Source: a virus
Lineage: Duplodnaviria > Heunggongvirae > Uroviricota > Caudoviricetes
Length of the DNA stretch: 7,792 nucleotides
Direction: 5' to 3' (one strand)
IMG/VR virus record: IMGVR_UViG_2663762810_000001
Translations under genes and position numbers: made by a program
The notes under the pieces: model-generated
The model's database searches: none
Seen by the model: only the letters and a program-made list of their open reading frames with translations
What the model was told of the DNA's origin: nothing
Part shown: piece after piece, positions 1-7,792 of the stretch
How the letters are laid out: every line of letters starts with the position of its first letter
Position numbering within the stretch: the first letter of the stretch is position 1

Positions 1-556
1 AGTCACCACTGCCGGAGCCTTCATAAGCAATATCAATGGCCACGGATTCGGTCGGGTTAAACTGCACGCCAGCCCCCCACGCCAGAGACGTGTTGCTGTG
101 GCGACCGTCATCACTTCCGGTCAGCACGTCGTGCGTTTTCCCCTTGTTGTCAGTTACGCGGAGATAATCCCCGGAGAAAGTCGACACACGGCTGTAAGCC
201 ATACCCGCCATCGCATACGCGCTGAACCATTCATTCACGCGCACAGACGGCCCCGCCATTACGCTGAACCAGCGGTTACGAACGGAATCTTCATGCCAGC
301 GGGTATTGCTGTAACGGGTCAGCTGGCGATTCTTGTCTCCTGCATAGCTGAATGACGTAACCAGCCCCAGCGTATCCGTAAACTCGTAGCGGTATTTCAC
401 GTTAATCCCGTTCAGATCATCGCTGCCGGGTACGTTGGTCCGGGCATGAAGATACCCCGCGCTCAGTGTGGACTGATGTTCAGACGCCCATGAAGGCGCA
501 CCGGATACGGCCAGACAGATGGCTGCGGACAAAATTGCTGCACAAACTTTACGCAT
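1..556 (-). CDS. lom: Lom outer-membrane protein (Ail/Lom/OmpX/PagC family), 3'-partial; about 20 C-terminal codons lie beyond the window start
   Basis: Minus-strand ATG at 556..554 preceded by GAGG (spacer 5 nt). My hand translation begins MRKVCAAILSAAICLAVSGAPSWASEHQSTLSAGYLHARTNVPGSDDLNGINVKYRYEFTDTLGLVTSFSYAGDKNRQL..., a signal peptide followed by near-identity to lambda Lom as I recall it. Frame stays open to position 2. Position immediately downstream of J matches lambda gene order. Not listed in the ORF track because it has no stop inside the window. Confidence 0.85.
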   Translation of the reverse strand, partial: MRKVCAAILSAAICLAVSGAPSWASEHQSTLSAGYLHARTNVPGSDDLNGINVKYRYEFTDTLGLVTSFSYAGDKNRQLTRYSNTRWHEDSVRNRWFSVMAGPSVRVNEWFSAYAMAGMAYSRVSTFSGDYLRVTDNKGKTHDVLTGSDDGRHSNTSLAWGAGVQFNPTESVAIDIAYEGSGSGD

Positions 557-580
557 AATTACCTCTCGCTTTTCTGCAAT

Positions 581-604
581 AAAAAAGGCGTCATTCCTGA
601 CGCC
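581..604 (-). terminator. Rho-independent terminator downstream of J (minus strand)
   Basis: Inverted repeat ggcgtca (587..593) / tgacgcc (598..604) with a 4-nt loop (ttcc). On the minus strand the stem is followed by TTTTTT (complement of aaaaaa at 581..586). It lies 23 nt past the J stop and upstream of the lom start. Confidence 0.6.
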
Positions 605-626
605 CTTTATTGGGGTTATAAATATT

Positions 627-3600
627 TCAACGAATACTGATGCCGGAAGCAGCCTTTTTGGTCACAATCACCGTACAGTCGGTGATATTACCTGCCCCCT
701 GATTGCCTTTCTGGAAAATCTTAAACTCCAGAGTGACGCTTCCTCTGCCACTCGGCATATCAATAACCGCACTGTAACTACCGGGAATGGCCCCTTTAGT
801 TTCTCTGGATGCGATTAATACGCCGTTTTTGCGAACTTCAAAACCATAACCTGTGTATCGCGTGCCTCCGGGGTTATTTCCGCTCCCCGGATCGTCATAC
901 GCCACACCGTTAAAAATAATGGGCGGAATAATGATTTGACGGTCAAAGTTATGATCATCGCTGATAGTGACTGTAACCGTCCCGTTTGGTGTTTCCGTGT
1001 TACCCCACGTACCAGCCTTCTTCGGGAATGATTTGGATACTGTTTTAACAAAATCGCCTCTGACCTGATTCGCCTCCAGCATGCCCTTAATCGTACAGTT
1101 CTCATTTATCTTGACGTTGTTTAGCGTCCCGGCGTTCGCATTCACACTGCCACTGATATCCGCATTTTTCGCCGTCAGTCGCCCGTCCGGTGTCAGGGAA
1201 AATGCCGGAGGATTACCGCCGCTGGTAATGGTGGGAGCCGTCAGGCGTTTCAGGAACACGTCGTTCATGAATATCTGATCGCCCTGCCCAACAAACATCG
1301 GCTTTGTGTTGCCATTCGCAGGATTAATCATCGCAATCCTGTCTGCCGCCAGCAGCACCTGACTCTGCATGCCGTCAGGGGTGTTCTCAATACCGGCACC
1401 AATACCCGCGATATAAAGGCGTCCGTCCTGCATCTGCTGCAGCTTCACAGCCCACATGCTGTTCAGGTTATTATTTGTATCAACCTGAACCTTCTGTATC
1501 TGCTGGATCGCTGCACTCTGGTCTTCCAGTTTCTTATTGACGGTCTGTGTGATTTCATTGCTGACATCCGTAATGGATGTCCTGATTTCAGCCAGGTCAG
1601 GCGCAAGCTGACCGTTATCAATCTGCGTCCACAGCTCCTGAGCCAGATGGGTTTTCCCTATCTCGCCTTTGAAAAAATCCAGATAGCCGGATGCGTCATC
1701 ACTCGGCTGACCAACAGCCTCCACGAATGCCGATTTGCCAACGGTGTTCACACTGCGAACGTAAAAATAATAATTATGGCCCGGCCTGATATTGATACTG
1801 GCGGCTATCCAGTACAGCGCCGTGCCAAGATAGCGTGCTGTGGTTTCAACCTGCCTGATATCGGTAATCCGCTTTTCCGAGAACCAGAACTCAAACTGTA
1901 CCGTCGGGTCATAAACGGCAAGATGCGGCGTGGCGGTTATCTGAAAATACCCCGGCGTCAGCTCAATCCGCGACGGTGCTACCGGTGCGGCAATCCGGAA
2001 CGATACCGACGCCGGATCGCCCTGCTGTCCCCACGCATTTACCGCCCGGACTGTCAGCGTGTACCGCCCCAGCGCCAGTTGCGTGAAGCGGTATGTGGTT
2101 TCCGTCGTCCGGGCCGTGCTGACCAGCCGCTCACTGCCGTCATCCGCTGCCACGGTCAGGCGAAGCATAAAGCTCACCCCCTTCACCACCTTCGGCGTGT
2201 CCCAGCGCGCCAGCACCTGGTATTCCCCGCTGTCTGCGGTGACTTCTGCGGTCAGGTGCTGTACTGCTGGCGGCGTGACGCCATTCACCGTGCCGCTCTG
2301 GTCGCCGTCAAAGTGCGCCCCGTTATCCACGATGGCCTCTTTTGCCGGTACATGCTGCACGGCGGTGATGGCATACGTGCCGTCGTCGTTCTCACGGATA
2401 CTCACGCAGCGGAACAGGCGCTGGCGCAGCGTCGGCAGCTTCAGTCCCCACACGCTGTATCCGGCAACGCCGTCAGGAACACGGCTCACTTTCACCTTCA
2501 CGCCGTCGGTGACGGACTGGACCTCCACGCTCACCGGATTGCCACTTCCGTCAACCAGGCTTATCAGCGTGGTGCCGGAGGATGGCAGCGTGATTTCACG
2601 GTCGAGCGTCAGCGTCCGGGTCTGGCTGTTCACCGCCAGCACGCGACCACCGGTGCTGATACCGGCATAGTCATCATCGCAGATTTCAATGACATCGCCC
2701 GGTACATGGCGAAGCCCTTCAGCACCCACGCTGAAATCCACGGTCTGCGTCTCCAGCAGTTCCGTTTTAATCAGCCACAGCCCGGCGCGGTGTGCCTGCC
2801 CCCGGCTGGTACAGCCAAAGGCATCCATCTTCGTGACATTACGACCGTAACGGGCAATGGCCTGCGTATCTTCAACAAGCTCTGTCGCCGTCTCCCAGCC
2901 GTTGTTCGGGTCAATCCAGTTCACCTCAACGGCATTATGGCGGTCCTTCAGGGCGCTGAAGCTGTAGCGGAACGGCGCGCCATCATCCGGCATCACCACA
3001 TTACTGCGGTTATAGGTCCACACCTTATCCGACGGTCGGTCCTGCACGAACGTCAGCGTCTGCCCGTTCCATACCGGCATACAGCGCATCGCCGAGCAGA
3101 AATCACTGAGCACATCCCACGCCTTTCGCTGTGTGGTCAGGTACGCATTACAGGCGATGCGCGGCTCCGTGCCGCCAAAGCCGTCCGGCACCGACTGGTC
3201 GCAATACTGGCCGATGACATACAGCGCCCATTTGTCCACATCCGCCGCACCAAGACGTTTCCCCATGCCGTAGCGCGGATGGGTCAGCATATCCCACAGA
3301 CACCATGCCATATTGTTGCTGTATGCCGGTTTAAACGTCCCGTCCCAGATACCGCTGTATTGCCGCGTCTGCGGGTTATAATTTGACGGCACCTGCAGAA
3401 TACGCCCGCGCAGATGATAATTACGGCTCACCTGCTGGCTGCCGAACTGCTCCGAGTCCACCTGCACGCCGACCAGTGCCGTGTTCGGGTAGCACTGTTT
3501 CACATCGATGATTTCAGTGTATGACGACCAGAGCGTTTTGTTCTGCAGCTGGTCTGTGGTGCTGTCCGGCGTCATCCTGCGCATCCGGATGTTGAACGGG

Positions 3601-4124
3601 CGCGGCGGCAGGTTACCCACCACCACCGAGGCCAGATACTGCGAGGTGGTTTTGCCCTTAATGGTGATGTCTTTTTCCGTCACCCAGCCACCATTACGCT
3701 GTATCTGAACCAGCAGGCGGACTTCCGACGGATTCCTGTCCCCCTTTGAGGTGGTTTCCACCAGTGCCTGCACGCCGAAGGTAAAACGCAGTCGGTCAAT
3801 GTTTGCCGACGTGATGGTCCGAGTGATCGGCGTGTCGTATTTCACTTCCGTACCCAGCACCGTCTCGGAGCCGGAGGATTCAAATCCCTCCGGCGGTGTC
3901 TGCTCCTGCTCACCGGCCCGGAACACCACCGTGACGCCGGAGATGTTGGTATTCCCCTCACTGTCCAGCACTGGCGTACTGTTCAGCAGCACGCTTTTTA
4001 ATCCATCCACCGGACCTTCAACCGGCCCTTCGCTGATGGCATCAATCACACTCAGCAGCTGCGTGGATTTCAGGTTGTCCTTCGCTTCGCGCGGGGTATG
4101 CCCCTTACTGCTGCCTTTACCCAT
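627..4124 (-). CDS. J: Tail-tip / host-specificity protein J (central tail fibre), 1165 aa, lambda-like with a divergent C-terminal region
   Basis: ORF-track protein begins [34 protein letters not shown]..., which matches the lambda gpJ N-terminus as I recall it, and similarity continues for about 1000 residues. Minus-strand GGAG lies 8 nt upstream of the ATG at 4124. It follows gene I after a 60-bp gap, the same spacing I recall for lambda. The last ~150 residues (roughly 627..1095) do not match lambda J as I remember it. Confidence 0.95.
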
Positions 4125-4184
4125 TCGTCATGCTCCATAAACGATAAAACCGCCCGGAGGCGGTTTCACATAAAACGTTTTTCA

Positions 4185-6035
4185 TCAGCGACCAATCACC
4201 ACAACCTGACCACCATCACCTTCATCTGCTGTGCTGATCTCCTGAGATACCACACGTGATCCCACGCGCATTTCACCGTACAGAACGGGCAGAACATTGC
4301 CCTGGGCAACCATATTATCCAGTGAAGAAAAATAGGTGTTCTGTTTGCCGTTATCCGTTGTCTGTGTGCGGGGGGTTTTGGGTTTAGGGGCCAGCATCTG
4401 TGCAACACCGCCAAGCGTCATACTGGCACCGAGAGAAAACAGCAGATTACTCGCCATAATTCCTACCCCCGGCATCCATATAGCAACCGCCATAACAGCC
4501 GCCCCCAGCACAGCCTGAAACACACCGCCACTTTTGGCTCCTGCCAGACGCGGCACGATATGGATCACAGCACCATTTGCCAGCGGTTCATTAAGACGGG
4601 CTGATAATTCCGTTTCACCTGTATCACGCCCGGCAATGCGTACCTGATACCAGCCGTCGCTCAGCTTCTGACGAAACGCCGGGATCTGCATGGCCAGCGC
4701 CCGGATGGCTTCGGCCCCCGTTTTCACACGCAGATCGATGCGGCGGACAAATCGTTGTAAATCCCCGTAAAGGCAGATGCGTGCCATGCCTGGTGACGCC
4801 AGAGGGAGTGTGTGCGTCGCTGCCATTTGGGAGTCGATACCGGCGGTCAGGTAAGCAACACGATCAGGAACGGGCGCTGAATAATGCTCTTTCCGCTCTG
4901 CCATCACTTCAGCATCCGGACGTTCGCCGATTTTCGCTTCCCACGTCTCACCGAGCGTGGTGTTCACGAAGGTTTTACGTTTTCCCGTATCCCCTTTCGT
5001 CTTCATCCAGTCTTTGACAATCTGCACCCAGGTGGTGAACGGGCTGTACGCTGTCCAGATGTGAAAGGTCACACTGTCAGGCGGTTCAATCTCTTCACCG
5101 GATGACGAAAACCAGAGAATGCCATCACGGGTCCAGATCCCGGTCTTTTCGCAGATATAACGGGCATCAGTGAAGTCCAGCTCCTGCTGACGGATGACGC
5201 AGGCGTTATGCTCGCAGAGATAAAACACGCTGGAGGGGTCATCCGGCGTCCATTTGAGGCCAAACGGCGTCTCTTTATCGCCAAATTTAAGGTACTGCTC
5301 CTCCCCGCAGTGCGGGCAGGCAACATGAAAACGCATAAAATGCGGGGATTCACTGGCTGCACGCTCAATCTGGCATGTGCCTCTCACTTTGGGCGTGGAG
5401 CCACGGATGGACTTTGGCCAGACCGAGCCTTCAATACGCTTATCGCCCAGGAACGTCGGAGAGCCTTCCTGTTCAATATCCTCATCAAAGGCAGCAAGTT
5501 CATCATAACCCGCCACATCCACCGACTTTTCACGGTAGTTTTTTGCCGCTTTACCGCCCAGGCACCAGAAGCCACGACCATTGGAAAAACGCTTCATGGT
5601 GAGCGTGTTATCCCGGTGCTTTTTGCCATACCACGGAGCCAGCGCCAGCAGCGACGGAATATCGCGGATGGTCGGCTCAACGTGGGTTTTCATAAAGTTC
5701 TCGGCATCACCATCCGTCGGCAACCAGATAAGGGTGTTGCGCTGCTTATGCTCTATGAAGTAGGCATAAACACCCAGCAGCATTTTGGAATAACCAACAC
5801 GGGCAGACTTCACCACATTCACCTCGCGGACGTAGTCACTGCCCATCGCATTCATGATGGCCCGCTGAAAGGGCAGTGTTTCCCAGCGCCCTTCCTGGTA
5901 TGCGGATTCTTTCGGGAGATAGTAATTGGCATCCGCCCATTCAACGGCGGTCTGTGGCTCCGGCCGGAACAGTGAGCGAAGCCCGGCGCGGACAAAATGC
6001 CGCAGCCTGTTAACCTGACTGTTCGATATATTCAC
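4185..6035 (-). CDS. A::I: In-frame fusion ORF: terminase large subunit gpA residues 1-403 (A-derived part 4827..6035) joined to a full-length tail assembly protein I (213 aa, I-derived part 4185..4826); probable deletion remnant, likely non-functional as a terminase
   Basis: Residues 1-403 (MNISNSQVNRLRHFVRAGLRSLFRPEPQTAVEWADANYYLPKES...DRVAYLTAGIDSQ) match lambda gpA as I recall it, including the GTG start (complement of cac at 6033..6035) that overlaps the Nu1 3' end. Residue 404 onward (MAATHTLPLASPGMARICLYGDLQRF...SQEISTADEGDGGQVVVIGR) matches lambda gpI from its own Met to its C-terminus. The junction is the minus-strand sequence GGT ATC GAC TCC CAA | ATG GCA GCG (window 4826/4827). Total 616 aa with no internal stop. 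Confidence 0.85.
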   Translation of the reverse strand: MNISNSQVNRLRHFVRAGLRSLFRPEPQTAVEWADANYYLPKESAYQEGRWETLPFQRAIMNAMGSDYVREVNVVKSARVGYSKMLLGVYAYFIEHKQRNTLIWLPTDGDAENFMKTHVEPTIRDIPSLLALAPWYGKKHRDNTLTMKRFSNGRGFWCLGGKAAKNYREKSVDVAGYDELAAFDEDIEQEGSPTFLGDKRIEGSVWPKSIRGSTPKVRGTCQIERAASESPHFMRFHVACPHCGEEQYLKFGDKETPFGLKWTPDDPSSVFYLCEHNACVIRQQELDFTDARYICEKTGIWTRDGILWFSSSGEEIEPPDSVTFHIWTAYSPFTTWVQIVKDWMKTKGDTGKRKTFVNTTLGETWEAKIGERPDAEVMAERKEHYSAPVPDRVAYLTAGIDSQMAATHTLPLASPGMARICLYGDLQRFVRRIDLRVKTGAEAIRALAMQIPAFRQKLSDGWYQVRIAGRDTGETELSARLNEPLANGAVIHIVPRLAGAKSGGVFQAVLGAAVMAVAIWMPGVGIMASNLLFSLGASMTLGGVAQMLAPKPKTPRTQTTDNGKQNTYFSSLDNMVAQGNVLPVLYGEMRVGSRVVSQEISTADEGDGGQVVVIGR

Positions 6036-6555
6036 TCAGCAACCCCGGTATCAGTTCATCCAGCGCGGCTGCTTTGTTCATGGCTTTGATGATATCCCGT
6101 TTCAGGAAATCAACATGTCGGTTTTCCAGTTCCGGAAAACGCCGCTGCACCGACAGGGGGATCCCGTCGAGAATACTGGCAATTTCACCTGCGATCCGCG
6201 ACAGCACGAAAGTACAGAATGCGGTTTCCACCACTTCAGCGGAGTCTCTGGCATTCTTCAGTTCCTGTGCGTCGGCCTGCGCACGCGTAAGTCGATGGCG
6301 TTCGTACTCAATAGTCCCTGGCTGGAGATCTGCCTCGCGGGCCTGCCGCAGTTCTTCAACCTCCCGGCGCAGCTTTTCGTTCTCAATTTCAGCATCCCTT
6401 TCGGCATACCATTTTATAACGGCGGCAGAGTCATAAAGCACCTCATTACCCTTGCCACCGCCTCGCAGAACGGGCATTCCCTGTTCCTGCCAGTTCTGAA
6501 TGGTACGGATACTCGCACCGAAAATGTCAGCCAGCTGCTTTTTGTTGACTTCCAT
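6010..6555 (-). CDS. nu1: Terminase small subunit Nu1 (cosB-binding, wing-helix DNA-binding N-terminus), 181 aa
   Basis: ORF-track protein MEVNKKQLADIFGASIRTIQNWQEQGMPVLRGGGKGNEVLYDSAAVIKWYAERDAEIENEKL...EYIEQSG is essentially lambda gpNu1 over its full length as I recall it. The 3' end overlaps the A start by 26 nt as in lambda. It lies directly downstream of cosB. Confidence 0.95.
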   Translation of the reverse strand: MEVNKKQLADIFGASIRTIQNWQEQGMPVLRGGGKGNEVLYDSAAVIKWYAERDAEIENEKLRREVEELRQAREADLQPGTIEYERHRLTRAQADAQELKNARDSAEVVETAFCTFVLSRIAGEIASILDGIPLSVQRRFPELENRHVDFLKRDIIKAMNKAAALDELIPGLLSEYIEQSG

Positions 6556-6576
6556 TGTTCATTCCACGGCCAAAAA

Positions 6577-6775
6577 CAGAGAAAGGAAACGACAGAGGCC
6601 AAAAAGCCCGTTTTCAGCACCTGTCGTTTCCTTTCTTTTTAGGGGGTGTTTTAAATAAAAACATGAAGTTACGGCGAAGAAGAACGGAAACGCCTTAAGC
6701 CGGAAAATTTTCATAAATAGCGAAAACCCGCGAGGTCGCCGCCCCGTAACCTGTCGGATCGCCGGAAAGGACCCG
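6577..6775. other. cos: cos site (cohesive-end packaging site): cosB with Nu1-binding R1, R2, R3 elements and IHF-site region, cosN, and the expected cosQ position
   Basis: Positions 6733..6744 (aggtcgccgccc) are the complement of GGGCGGCGACCT, the 12-nt lambda cohesive end. The adjacent 6745..6757 complement reads ...CCGACAGGTTACG, the lambda right terminus. Three copies of the R-element core GGAAACG sit between cosN and Nu1: R3 about 6680..6695, R2 6621..6635 (inverted), R1 6581..6595. R1 and R2 form a perfect 15-bp inverted repeat (gaaaggaaacgacag / ctgtcgtttcctttc). The AT-rich stretch 6640..6672 corresponds to where IHF site I1 lies in lambda. cosQ is expected about 6760..6775 by position. 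Confidence 0.9.
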
Positions 6776-6780
6776 CAAAA

Positions 6781-6795
6781 TGATAATAATTATCA
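6781..6795. promoter_or_regulatory. Perfect 7-1-7 palindrome TGATAAT-A-ATTATCA, Fur-box-like; function unknown
   Basis: The sequence tgataataattatca at 6781..6795 is a perfect inverted repeat of the form tGATAATnATTATCa, which is one common description of the Fur-box half-site arrangement. It lies about 35 bp on the right-arm side of cosN and about 150 bp upstream of the 64-aa ORF. Confidence 0.3.
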
Positions 6796-6943
6796 TCTGC
6801 ATGTCACAACGTGCATCTACGCAATCAAACCACGTCAAATAATCAATTATGACGCAGATATCGTATTAATTGATCTGCATCAACTTAACGTAAAAACAAC
6901 TTCAGACAATACAAATCAGCGACACTGAATACGGGGCAACCTC

Positions 6944-7138
6944 ATGTCAACGAAGAACAAAACCCGCAGAACAACAACCCGCAACATCCGCTTTCCTAAC
7001 CAAATGATTGAACAAATTAACATCGCTCTTGAGCAAAAAGGGTCTGGGAATTTCTCAGCCTGGGTCATTGAAGCCTGCCGTCGGAGACTAACGTCAGAAA
7101 AGAGAGCATATACATCAATCCAGAGTGATGATGGATGA
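6944..7138 (+). CDS. Hypothetical 64-aa protein with ribbon-helix-helix-like pattern (possible CopG/Arc/MetJ-type DNA-binding protein)
   Basis: ORF-track protein MSTKNKTRRTTTRNIRFPNQMIEQINIALEQKGSGNFSAWVIEACRRRLTSEKRAYTSIQSDDG. A basic N-terminus is followed by a short strand-like segment (RNIRF) and two amphipathic helix-like segments (NQMIEQINIALEQKG / FSAWVIEACRRRL), as in RHH folds. A G-rich weak SD (GGGG) sits 7 nt upstream. It is transcribed in the same direction as bor, opposite to the late operon. I recall an equivalent ORF at the right end of lambda but am not certain it is annotated. Confidence 0.45.
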   Translation: MSTKNKTRRTTTRNIRFPNQMIEQINIALEQKGSGNFSAWVIEACRRRLTSEKRAYTSIQSDDG

Positions 7139-7245
7139 ACATCCCGGTTTCTTCCACCATCGCACCGGAAAAGCGACTATGAGGGTAACCCTGCGTCTGT
7201 CAGCACAGTAAAACCCGGTGTGCATCGTTTTTGATTATTCCCGCA

Positions 7246-7300
7246 CACTCACGCAGAAGGAATTCCCCGTCGGGCTACGGTCATGGTTAATGCGGGAATA
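7246..7300. repeat. 10-bp perfect inverted repeat TATTCCCGCA ... TGCGGGAATA with a 35-nt spacer, upstream of bor
   Basis: tattcccgca at 7246..7255 and tgcgggaata at 7291..7300 are exact reverse complements. The spacer contains an EcoRI-like gaattc and ccccgtcggg. Could be a protein-binding site or a stem in the bor 5' leader region. Confidence 0.35.
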
Positions 7301-7500
7301 CGGCGACGATACAGCGCAGCTAAAAGGGTAATAGACGGATAGACCGGTTTATTTCATTCCACAGGATTCTGAGTGTCCCCAACTTCCTCCAATAGTCTGA
7401 GCGTACACCTATATAGTTTTAATTTTCATCAATCCATTTAACTATCGTTTAATTGTTGTCACATAGGATTCTGCCGTTTTTAACAATGCAGGATAATAAG

Positions 7501-7792
7501 ATGAAAAAAATGTTGTTTTCTGCCGCTCTGGCAATGCTTATTACAGGATGTGCTCAACAGACGTTTACTGTTGGAAACAAACCGACAGCAGTAACACCAA
7601 AGGAAACCATCACCCATCACTTCTTCGTTTCGGGAATTGGACAGGAGAAAACTGTTGATGCAGCCAAAATTTGTGGCGGCGCAGAAAATGTTGTTAAAAC
7701 AGAAACCCAGCAAACATTCGTAAATGGATTGCTCGGTTTTATTACTTTAGGCATTTATACTCCGCTGGAAGCGCGTGTGTATTGCTCACAAT
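7501..7792 (+). CDS. bor: Bor lipoprotein (serum-resistance lipoprotein, Iss/Bor family); all 97 codons present, stop codon truncated by the window end
   Basis: ATG at 7501 with AGGA 7 nt upstream. My translation is MKKMLFSAALAMLITGCAQQTFTVGNKPTAVTPKETITHHFFVSGIGQEKTVDAAKICGGAENVVKTETQQTFVNGLLGFITLGIYTPLEARVYCSQ, with a lipobox (LITGC) and near-identity to lambda Bor as I recall it. Absent from the ORF track only because no stop lies inside the window. Position and orientation relative to cos match lambda. Confidence 0.9.
   Translation, partial: MKKMLFSAALAMLITGCAQQTFTVGNKPTAVTPKETITHHFFVSGIGQEKTVDAAKICGGAENVVKTETQQTFVNGLLGFITLGIYTPLEARVYCSQ

Follow-up and report, generated by a model that had tools for sequence, protein, structure and literature searches.

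Packaging from a lambda-type cos requires cosB and cosN for initiation and cosQ and cosN for termination (PMC4669245). The small terminase subunit (TerS) binds cosB and the large subunit (TerL) nicks cosN, and the terminase held on the cosB-bearing end translocates that end first (PMC4669245; PMC4856287). Terminases of the cos type need a downstream cosQ and cosN in order to terminate (PMC4669245; PMC6687093), and passive prophage DNA is packaged by a helper phage only between two tandem cos sites (PMC4669245). On infection, a phage of the same specificity starts packaging at the cos of a prophage and takes the adjacent bacterial DNA into its heads. Where the prophage carries a single cos, the full head stalls the motor, leaving a tailless, non-infectious particle; the alternative outcome is a downstream crossover with phage DNA, which yields a recombinant phage (Feiss et al., 2015). 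Packaging that aborts after initiation at a prophage cos is also said to reduce the yield of the helper (Feiss et al., 2015).

Two kinds of element come closest to the locus described here. One is the DLP12 prophage of Escherichia coli K-12, which has the layout borD-(ybcV-ybcW)-ylcI-cos-nohD-aaaD'-tfaD, aaaD' being an A gene truncated near codon 103, where it runs into tfaD. Recombination between lambda and DLP12 has been measured, and about half of the junctions adjoin cos; recombinants with the DLP12 nu1 are viable, and this nu1 works in lambda (De Paepe et al., 2014; PMC3945230). The other kind is the Gram-negative cos-PICIs (EcCICFT073, Rpp), which are capsid-less elements with a cos usable by the TerL of a lambda-like helper (PMC9026076). 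PICIs own a different cosB and retarget the helper TerS via Rpp. They excise and replicate, and the resulting concatemers provide the second cos.

Here we describe a lambda-type cos that lies beside a full-length Nu1 gene and a truncated large terminase gene on a short draft contig. It is highly probable that this is a genuine lambda-type cos with its Nu1, carried on a freshly deleted fragment of the DLP12 family, and that its use by a helper phage would end in dead-end packaging or in recombination. What the window contains is an ordinary cos of lambda specificity, of a kind already known and with consequences already described.

The contig and its genes

The stretch analyzed, hereafter the window, is the entire 7,792-bp contig JXWI01000040.1 of the draft assembly GCA_000948905.1. 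One of its ends lies inside lom and the other coincides with bor's last codon; both genes are shared among lambdoid prophages. This suggests that repeats interrupted the assembly and that the strain has one or more further lambdoid prophages. The first-pass annotation of this DNA had spoken of a prophage, of a chromosomal cos and of an element that cannot make capsids; on a 7.8-kb draft contig that ends in lom and bor, these terms were overstated.

The lom gene (2-556, minus strand) encodes an Ail/Lom outer-membrane protein that covers positions 1-185 of the 199 in the Pfam Ail_Lom profile and is cut by the contig end. The tail tip and host specificity protein J (627-4124, minus strand; 1,165 aa) is recognized by its Pfam J domains. 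It is followed by an in-frame fusion of residues 1-403 of the large terminase subunit gpA to the tail assembly protein I (4185-6035, minus strand; 616 aa), identified by Pfam and alignment, with the junction at 4828/4829. The Nu1/nohD-type terminase small subunit (6010-6555, minus strand; 181 aa) is full length and covers the whole Pfam Phage_Nu1 profile. On the cosQ side of cos lies a ylcI-like DUF3950 gene (6944-7138, plus strand; 64 aa; Pfam DUF3950), which is placed as ylcI is in K-12 DLP12 and its relatives. The last gene is a bor/iss lipoprotein gene (7501-7791, plus strand; Pfam Lambda_Bor) that is annotated as iss or borD in the relatives and stops at the contig end. A search of the whole window against Rfam gave no match.

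Head genes are absent on the contig by gene calls and Pfam, as had been noted at first pass. Lambda alignment, gene calls and Pfam agree that W, B, C, Nu3, D, E, FI, FII, Z, U, V, G, T, H, M, L and K are all missing from the contig.

J is 1,165 aa long here and 1,132 aa in lambda. Its C-terminal receptor-binding part, encoded in the 3' part of the gene (window 627-1600), has strongly diverged from lambda J, which suggests that its receptor specificity may differ from that of lambda. Beyond lambda 18002 the nucleotide likeness to lambda is patchy. The interval between ylcI and bor (7139-7500) is short. It has neither ybcV nor ybcW (DUF1398), which are present there in K-12 DLP12 and in UR21/11-869, and it also lacks about 1.1 kb of lambda (46975-48092). 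Most of the differences between the window and its closest relative are clustered at 7333-7405.

The cos site compared with lambda

The reverse complement of the window was aligned to the lambda cos junction (J02459). The aligned part runs from lambda 48092 through 1918 and from window 7155 down to 4828, with 97% identity; bp 1 of lambda falls at window 6744, on the minus strand. On the basis of this alignment, window 6580-6774 (minus strand) reads as a genuine and complete cos of predicted lambda specificity, with the order cosQ-cosN-I2-R3-I1-R2-R1.

The heptamer GGGTCCT of cosQ, the packaging-termination subsite, lies at 6768-6774 (minus strand) and is identical to lambda 48473-48479, which we take to be the cosQ position of Wieczorek & Feiss 2001. 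There is no indel between cosQ and cosN in the lambda alignment, and their distance is that of lambda. The cosN subsite, which is 16 bp by definition (PMC9026076), occupies 6731-6746 (minus strand) and is an exact match. It consists of the 12-nt cohesive end GGGCGGCGACCT (6733-6744) with 2 bp on each flank. The sequence GGGCGGCGACCT occurs once in the window, where 0.02 occurrences are expected by chance, and in the alignment the stretch across the cos junction from lambda 48487 to lambda 45 is identical. The nick sites are predicted at 6745/6744 on the minus strand and at 6733/6732 on the plus strand.

The I2 spacer (6695-6727, minus strand; lambda bp 18-50, extent after PMC4856287) is required and spacing-critical; it carries the single substitution T46C and is free of indels. 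R3, the critical binding site of TerS (Nu1), lies at 6680-6695 (minus strand; lambda bp 50-65, coordinates after PMC9026076) and matches lambda in 16 of 16 positions. The same is true of the TerS binding site R2 (6621-6636, plus strand; lambda bp 109-124), which is inverted relative to R3 and R1 as it is in lambda, and of R1 (6580-6595, minus strand; lambda bp 151-166), a TerS binding site whose role in lambda is accessory (PMC4669245). The R core CGTTTCCKTTCT has exactly three matches, on the minus, plus and minus strands, and none of 200 shuffled sequences reached three. Lambda bp 1-135 is free of indels, so the spacing between cosN and R3, known to be critical (PMC9026076; PMC4856287), is preserved.

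The I1 region from R3 to R2 (6637-6679, minus strand) is the least conserved part of cos and has six substitutions relative to lambda, at bp 71, 73, 80, 97, 102 and 105. Its IHF-consensus-like core (window 6654-6666, lambda 79-91) was located by a consensus scan rather than from a paper. The best match to the IHF consensus lies at the lambda position, and through A80C it has two mismatches to WATCAANNNNTTR against one in lambda. IHF is accessory for lambda (PMC4856287). The spacer between R2 and R1 has a 1-bp deletion relative to lambda. A80C and this deletion could lower the efficiency of the site; both are also present in prophages with intact packaging genes.

Altogether, window and lambda differ at 16 of 251 bp. 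Only one of the differences falls within the 103 bp of defined subsites, and the other 15 fall within the 148 bp of spacers, namely I1, the R2-R1 interval with its deletion and the segment upstream of cosQ (Fisher p=0.003). Such sparing of the subsites is the trace that would be expected from purifying selection in a working phage lineage.

The first-pass annotation had described a cos with a conserved cohesive end and three conserved R elements, and this agrees with the identity of cosQ, cosN, R3, R2 and R1 to lambda. Its further statement that cosB is fully intact from R3 through I1 and R2 to R1 is confirmed for the R sites, each 16/16, with two small corrections, the six substitutions in I1 and the deletion between R2 and R1. 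R2 is a perfect reverse complement of R1, as had been said of an inverted repeat of 15 bp; the repeat is 16 bp long and is simply lambda's own.

Immediately upstream of cosQ, at 6780-6809 on the minus strand, there is a sequence that resembles a sigma-70 promoter (GTGACA-16 nt-TATCAT, 10/12). It overlaps an AT-rich palindrome at 6782-6797 that lambda has too. Promoter and terminator pattern matches around cos were no more frequent than in shuffled sequence, and they were set aside.

Nu1 and the truncated large terminase

Nu1 is complete, as had been annotated, and 179 of its 181 residues are those of lambda. Residues 1-72 are all identical, so that the DNA-binding domain is lambda's, with the recognition helix (17-24) and the wing (31-39) of its winged helix-turn-helix. 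The start of the gene lies about 190 bp from the nick, again as in lambda. A comparison of cosN and the R elements with the lambda and phage 21 types had been proposed as a check; against lambda, there are no point differences in cosN or in the R elements. Since the R elements and the recognition helix and wing of Nu1 are those of lambda, the predicted packaging specificity is supported as lambda type and not phage 21 type.

In lambda, cos adjoins a working terminase and head operon, whereas the cos of the window adjoins a truncated A. The gpA portion of the fusion, residues 1-403, is identical to lambda at 400 of 403 positions, and it is joined in frame to the whole of I, from I's own ATG. 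Pfam finds in the 616-aa reading frame a complete ATPase domain, positions 2-87 of the 294 in the nuclease profile, and Lambda_tail_I. The large subunit thus stops at residue 403 without about 70% of its nuclease domain and without its C-terminus, in agreement with the first-pass reading that it lacks the nuclease region. What remains of gpA includes the Nu1-binding N-terminus and the ATPase domain. The GTG start codon of A was considered as a decay mutation and ruled out, because lambda and the intact relatives share it.

Relation to DLP12 and to PICIs

The window shares the order bor-ylcI-cos-Nu1-A' with K-12 DLP12. In both, an orphan lambda-type cos of near-identical sequence accompanies a Nu1 homologue of full length and a large terminase that is truncated. 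They differ in where A is cut, at codon 403 with a fusion to I in the window and at about codon 103 with a junction to tfaD in DLP12. They also differ in ybcV and ybcW, which lie between bor and ylcI in DLP12 and are both missing in the window, and in R3, which bears one substitution in DLP12 that the window does not have. With the bor-ylcI-cos-nohD/Nu1-truncated A synteny present and the morphogenesis genes lost, the window is probably a fragment of a defective lambdoid prophage of the DLP12 family.

The window resembles a cos-PICI in being capsid-less with a cos that a lambda-like TerL could use. Identity as a PICI was rejected because Nu1, not Rpp, adjoins cos and because the R sites of cosB all equal those of lambda. 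Unlike in PICIs, the cosB is the phage's own and Nu1 occupies the rpp position. The contig has no PICI genes; Pfam found no integrase, alpA regulator or replication module on its 7.8 kb.

Origin and age of the probable deletion

The junction at 4828/4829 joins codon 403 of A to the start codon of I and reads GGTATCGACTCCCA followed directly by AATGGCAGC. Intact A reads ...CTCCCA/GCTGG at the breakpoint (slash) and intact K/I reads ...CCGACA/AATGGC. The two share an exact microhomology of 2 bp (CA) amid the loosely similar GGTAT..CGAC. About 13 kb (in lambda coordinates) would recently have been lost between codon 403 of A and the start codon of I, probably through illegitimate recombination at this microhomology.

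At 99.1-99.4% identity, the closest relatives of the right-hand part of the window all belong to E. coli. Over window 4828-7792, identity is 99.4% to the DLI.6n prophage (CP103974) and 99.1% to that of MS 196-1 (CP146681). Both of these prophages keep an A of 641 aa, W, portal, protease, D, E and tail genes, whereas the window jumps from codon 403 of A straight to I. Over A', Nu1 and cos (4828-6798) there is 1 SNP in 1,971 bp relative to the DLI.6n prophage, which has a full-length terminase. The cos is identical in 243 of 243 positions (window 6556-6798) in four complete E. coli genomes, and every difference from lambda within 6556-6798 is common to prophages with full-length terminase and head genes. 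The allele is thus that of apparently functional phages.

Both relatives have damage of their own in other places. An IS66-family element separates the decoration and major capsid genes of DLI.6n (CP103974), where an IS3 element also adjoins a frameshifted ren; in MS 196-1, rusA is split by an IS3 element. The insertion sequences are at 5327-7942 and 22054-23267 in CP103974 and at 19053-20266 in CP146681. The closest relatives with a full-length terminase may therefore not be fully viable phages.

One SNP in 1,971 bp from a relative with an intact terminase means either a very recent deletion or, with lower probability, a junction created by an assembly error. The second reading, in which the fusion of A to I is a chimeric short-read join of two lambdoid prophages and cos, Nu1 and A come from an ordinary and possibly intact prophage, is in our view unlikely. 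It would account for several features of the record. The window is a whole 7,792-bp draft contig whose two ends fall in repeated genes, lom and bor, and its left (1-4829) and right (4828-7792) parts have different closest relatives. Among about 15 billion catalogued proteins, the fusion protein is recorded from a single contig. Scanning the GTDB representative genomes for the exact junction pattern gave no matches, and megablast of the junction against 5,426 complete E. coli genomes gave no single-piece match, only other deletions. Against a chimera speaks the junction itself: an exact microhomology of 2 bp appears too short for a mis-join in a k-mer graph and is typical of illegitimate recombination. 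Distinct real deletions from A' to I or J exist in finished genomes, and K-12 DLP12 has one of its own; mosaic ancestry is, moreover, normal among lambdoid phages. A recent deletion therefore remains the preferred reading.

On the reading of a recent deletion, cos and Nu1 have stayed intact because they lay outside the lost segment and there was no time for decay. The first-pass annotation had called them retained, a word that implies maintenance. With A'-Nu1-cos 1 SNP in 1,971 bp away from an intact relative and the fusion on one contig, this reading does not stand, and the intactness of cos and Nu1 carries no sign of selection under either a recent deletion or a chimera. Two lessons for annotation follow the same line. 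Intactness beside a very recent deletion is no evidence of selective retention, and a short, repeat-bounded draft contig is no basis for claims on the abilities of a whole prophage or genome.

Expected outcome of helper packaging

With a TerL that has lost most of its nuclease domain and its portal-binding C-terminus, and with no head genes, the element should be unable to cut or package itself. By analogy with lambda, a terminase of lambda specificity from a co-resident or infecting phage would bind R3 and R2 with IHF and nick cosN. Translocation from cosN would then proceed toward Nu1, A'::I, J and lom, that is, in the direction of decreasing coordinates; the direction proposed at first pass is the one that lambda biology predicts. 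The helper packaging described by the Feiss laboratory, in which a lytic terminase of the same specificity initiates at the cos of a repressed prophage, is exactly what had been proposed at first pass. Helper cleavage at a prophage cos thus appears to be a sound idea, and one already published (Feiss et al., 2015).

The first-pass annotation had gone further and proposed mobilization of the element or transduction of its genes and of neighbouring chromosome. In the Feiss-laboratory system, productive packaging needs two tandem cos sites; with a single site, the product is a stalled particle without a tail or a recombinant phage, not a transducing particle. The window holds one cos only. Since termination needs a second cosQ and cosN, the transduction route is weakly supported, and it goes against what the literature leads one to expect unless another cos is located downstream at a distance of about one genome length. 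Termination of the headful or lateral type, without a second specific site, does not fit a single cos in the window and a cos-type terminase. In the account we prefer, packaging without a downstream cos at the right orientation and distance would not terminate and would leave a stalled, tailless, non-infectious particle. One consequence would be a small tax on the helper phage. Another would be break-stimulated or downstream recombination that moves prophage cos and Nu1 alleles into the phage, as for K-12 DLP12.

That the orphan cos is nevertheless a significant helper-dependent route of transduction for J, lom and flanking host DNA is, on balance, very unlikely. In its favour, the cos is lambda-like throughout and the direction predicted for packaging is right. 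E. coli genomes carry several lambda-type cos sites (see below), so a second site in the same orientation some 38-51 kb downstream could permit packaging from cos to cos, as between tandem prophages. The classical 'doc' particles of Sternberg and Weisberg from 1975 could reportedly transduce after nuclease trimming. Literature searches found nothing on 'doc' particles and single-cos packaging, nor on cos mutants that revert through a defective prophage, nor any paper on assembly GCA_000948905.1. Weighing on the other side are the need for cosQ and cosN at termination, the published fate of a lone prophage cos, and a window that has one cos and ends with the contig.

Orphan cos sites in E. coli

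Among 5,426 complete E. coli genomes, a lambda-type cos that covers at least 80% of the 245-bp query was present in 3,972, and any match to it in 4,591 (85%). The median is 2 places per genome and the maximum is 8. Phage records with a lambda-type cos numbered 87, among them lambda, HK630, Stx1a-converting phages and ECOR-derived phages. In other finished genomes, independent and distinct deletions join a truncated A to K'/I/J or to tfaD with ylcI-cos-nohD kept; examples are NZ_OU342919.1, NZ_CP049118.1 and K-12 DLP12. The query of this search for remnants demanded both A and I sequence, and its matches are biased by that. The recurrence of cos-nohD-A' remnants was considered as a sign of selection and dropped for this reason.

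It is extremely improbable that cos, Nu1 and the nuclease-dead TerL form a domesticated module selected as a decoy or dominant-negative terminase against phages of lambda specificity, or as a reservoir for recombination. The idea draws on the recurrence of such remnants in K-12 DLP12 and other genomes, on the Nu1-binding N-terminus and ATPase domain that the truncated gpA retains, and on the reduced helper yield attributed to abortive initiation. The recurrence is subject to the bias of the query, a fusion seen on one contig and 1 SNP from an intact relative gives no signal of maintenance, and late-gene expression needs the Q/pR' region, which is off the contig.

We consider it highly improbable as well that orphan lambda-type cos sites collectively have a selected anti-phage or gene-transfer function of which this locus would be one instance rather than debris. 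Such a function would operate through directly oriented pairs, spaced by about 38-51 kb, that allow helper packaging of defined chromosomal segments from cos to cos, or through Nu1 and a nuclease-dead TerL that act as a decoy.

The locus is best seen as a clean example of an orphan intact cos in a decaying lambdoid prophage, with little weight as a discovery. The known consequences of such a cos are abortive packaging by phages of the same specificity and an exchange of cos and terminase alleles that feeds phage mosaicism. In the complete E. coli genomes, 37 of the places with a lambda-type cos sit on plasmids.
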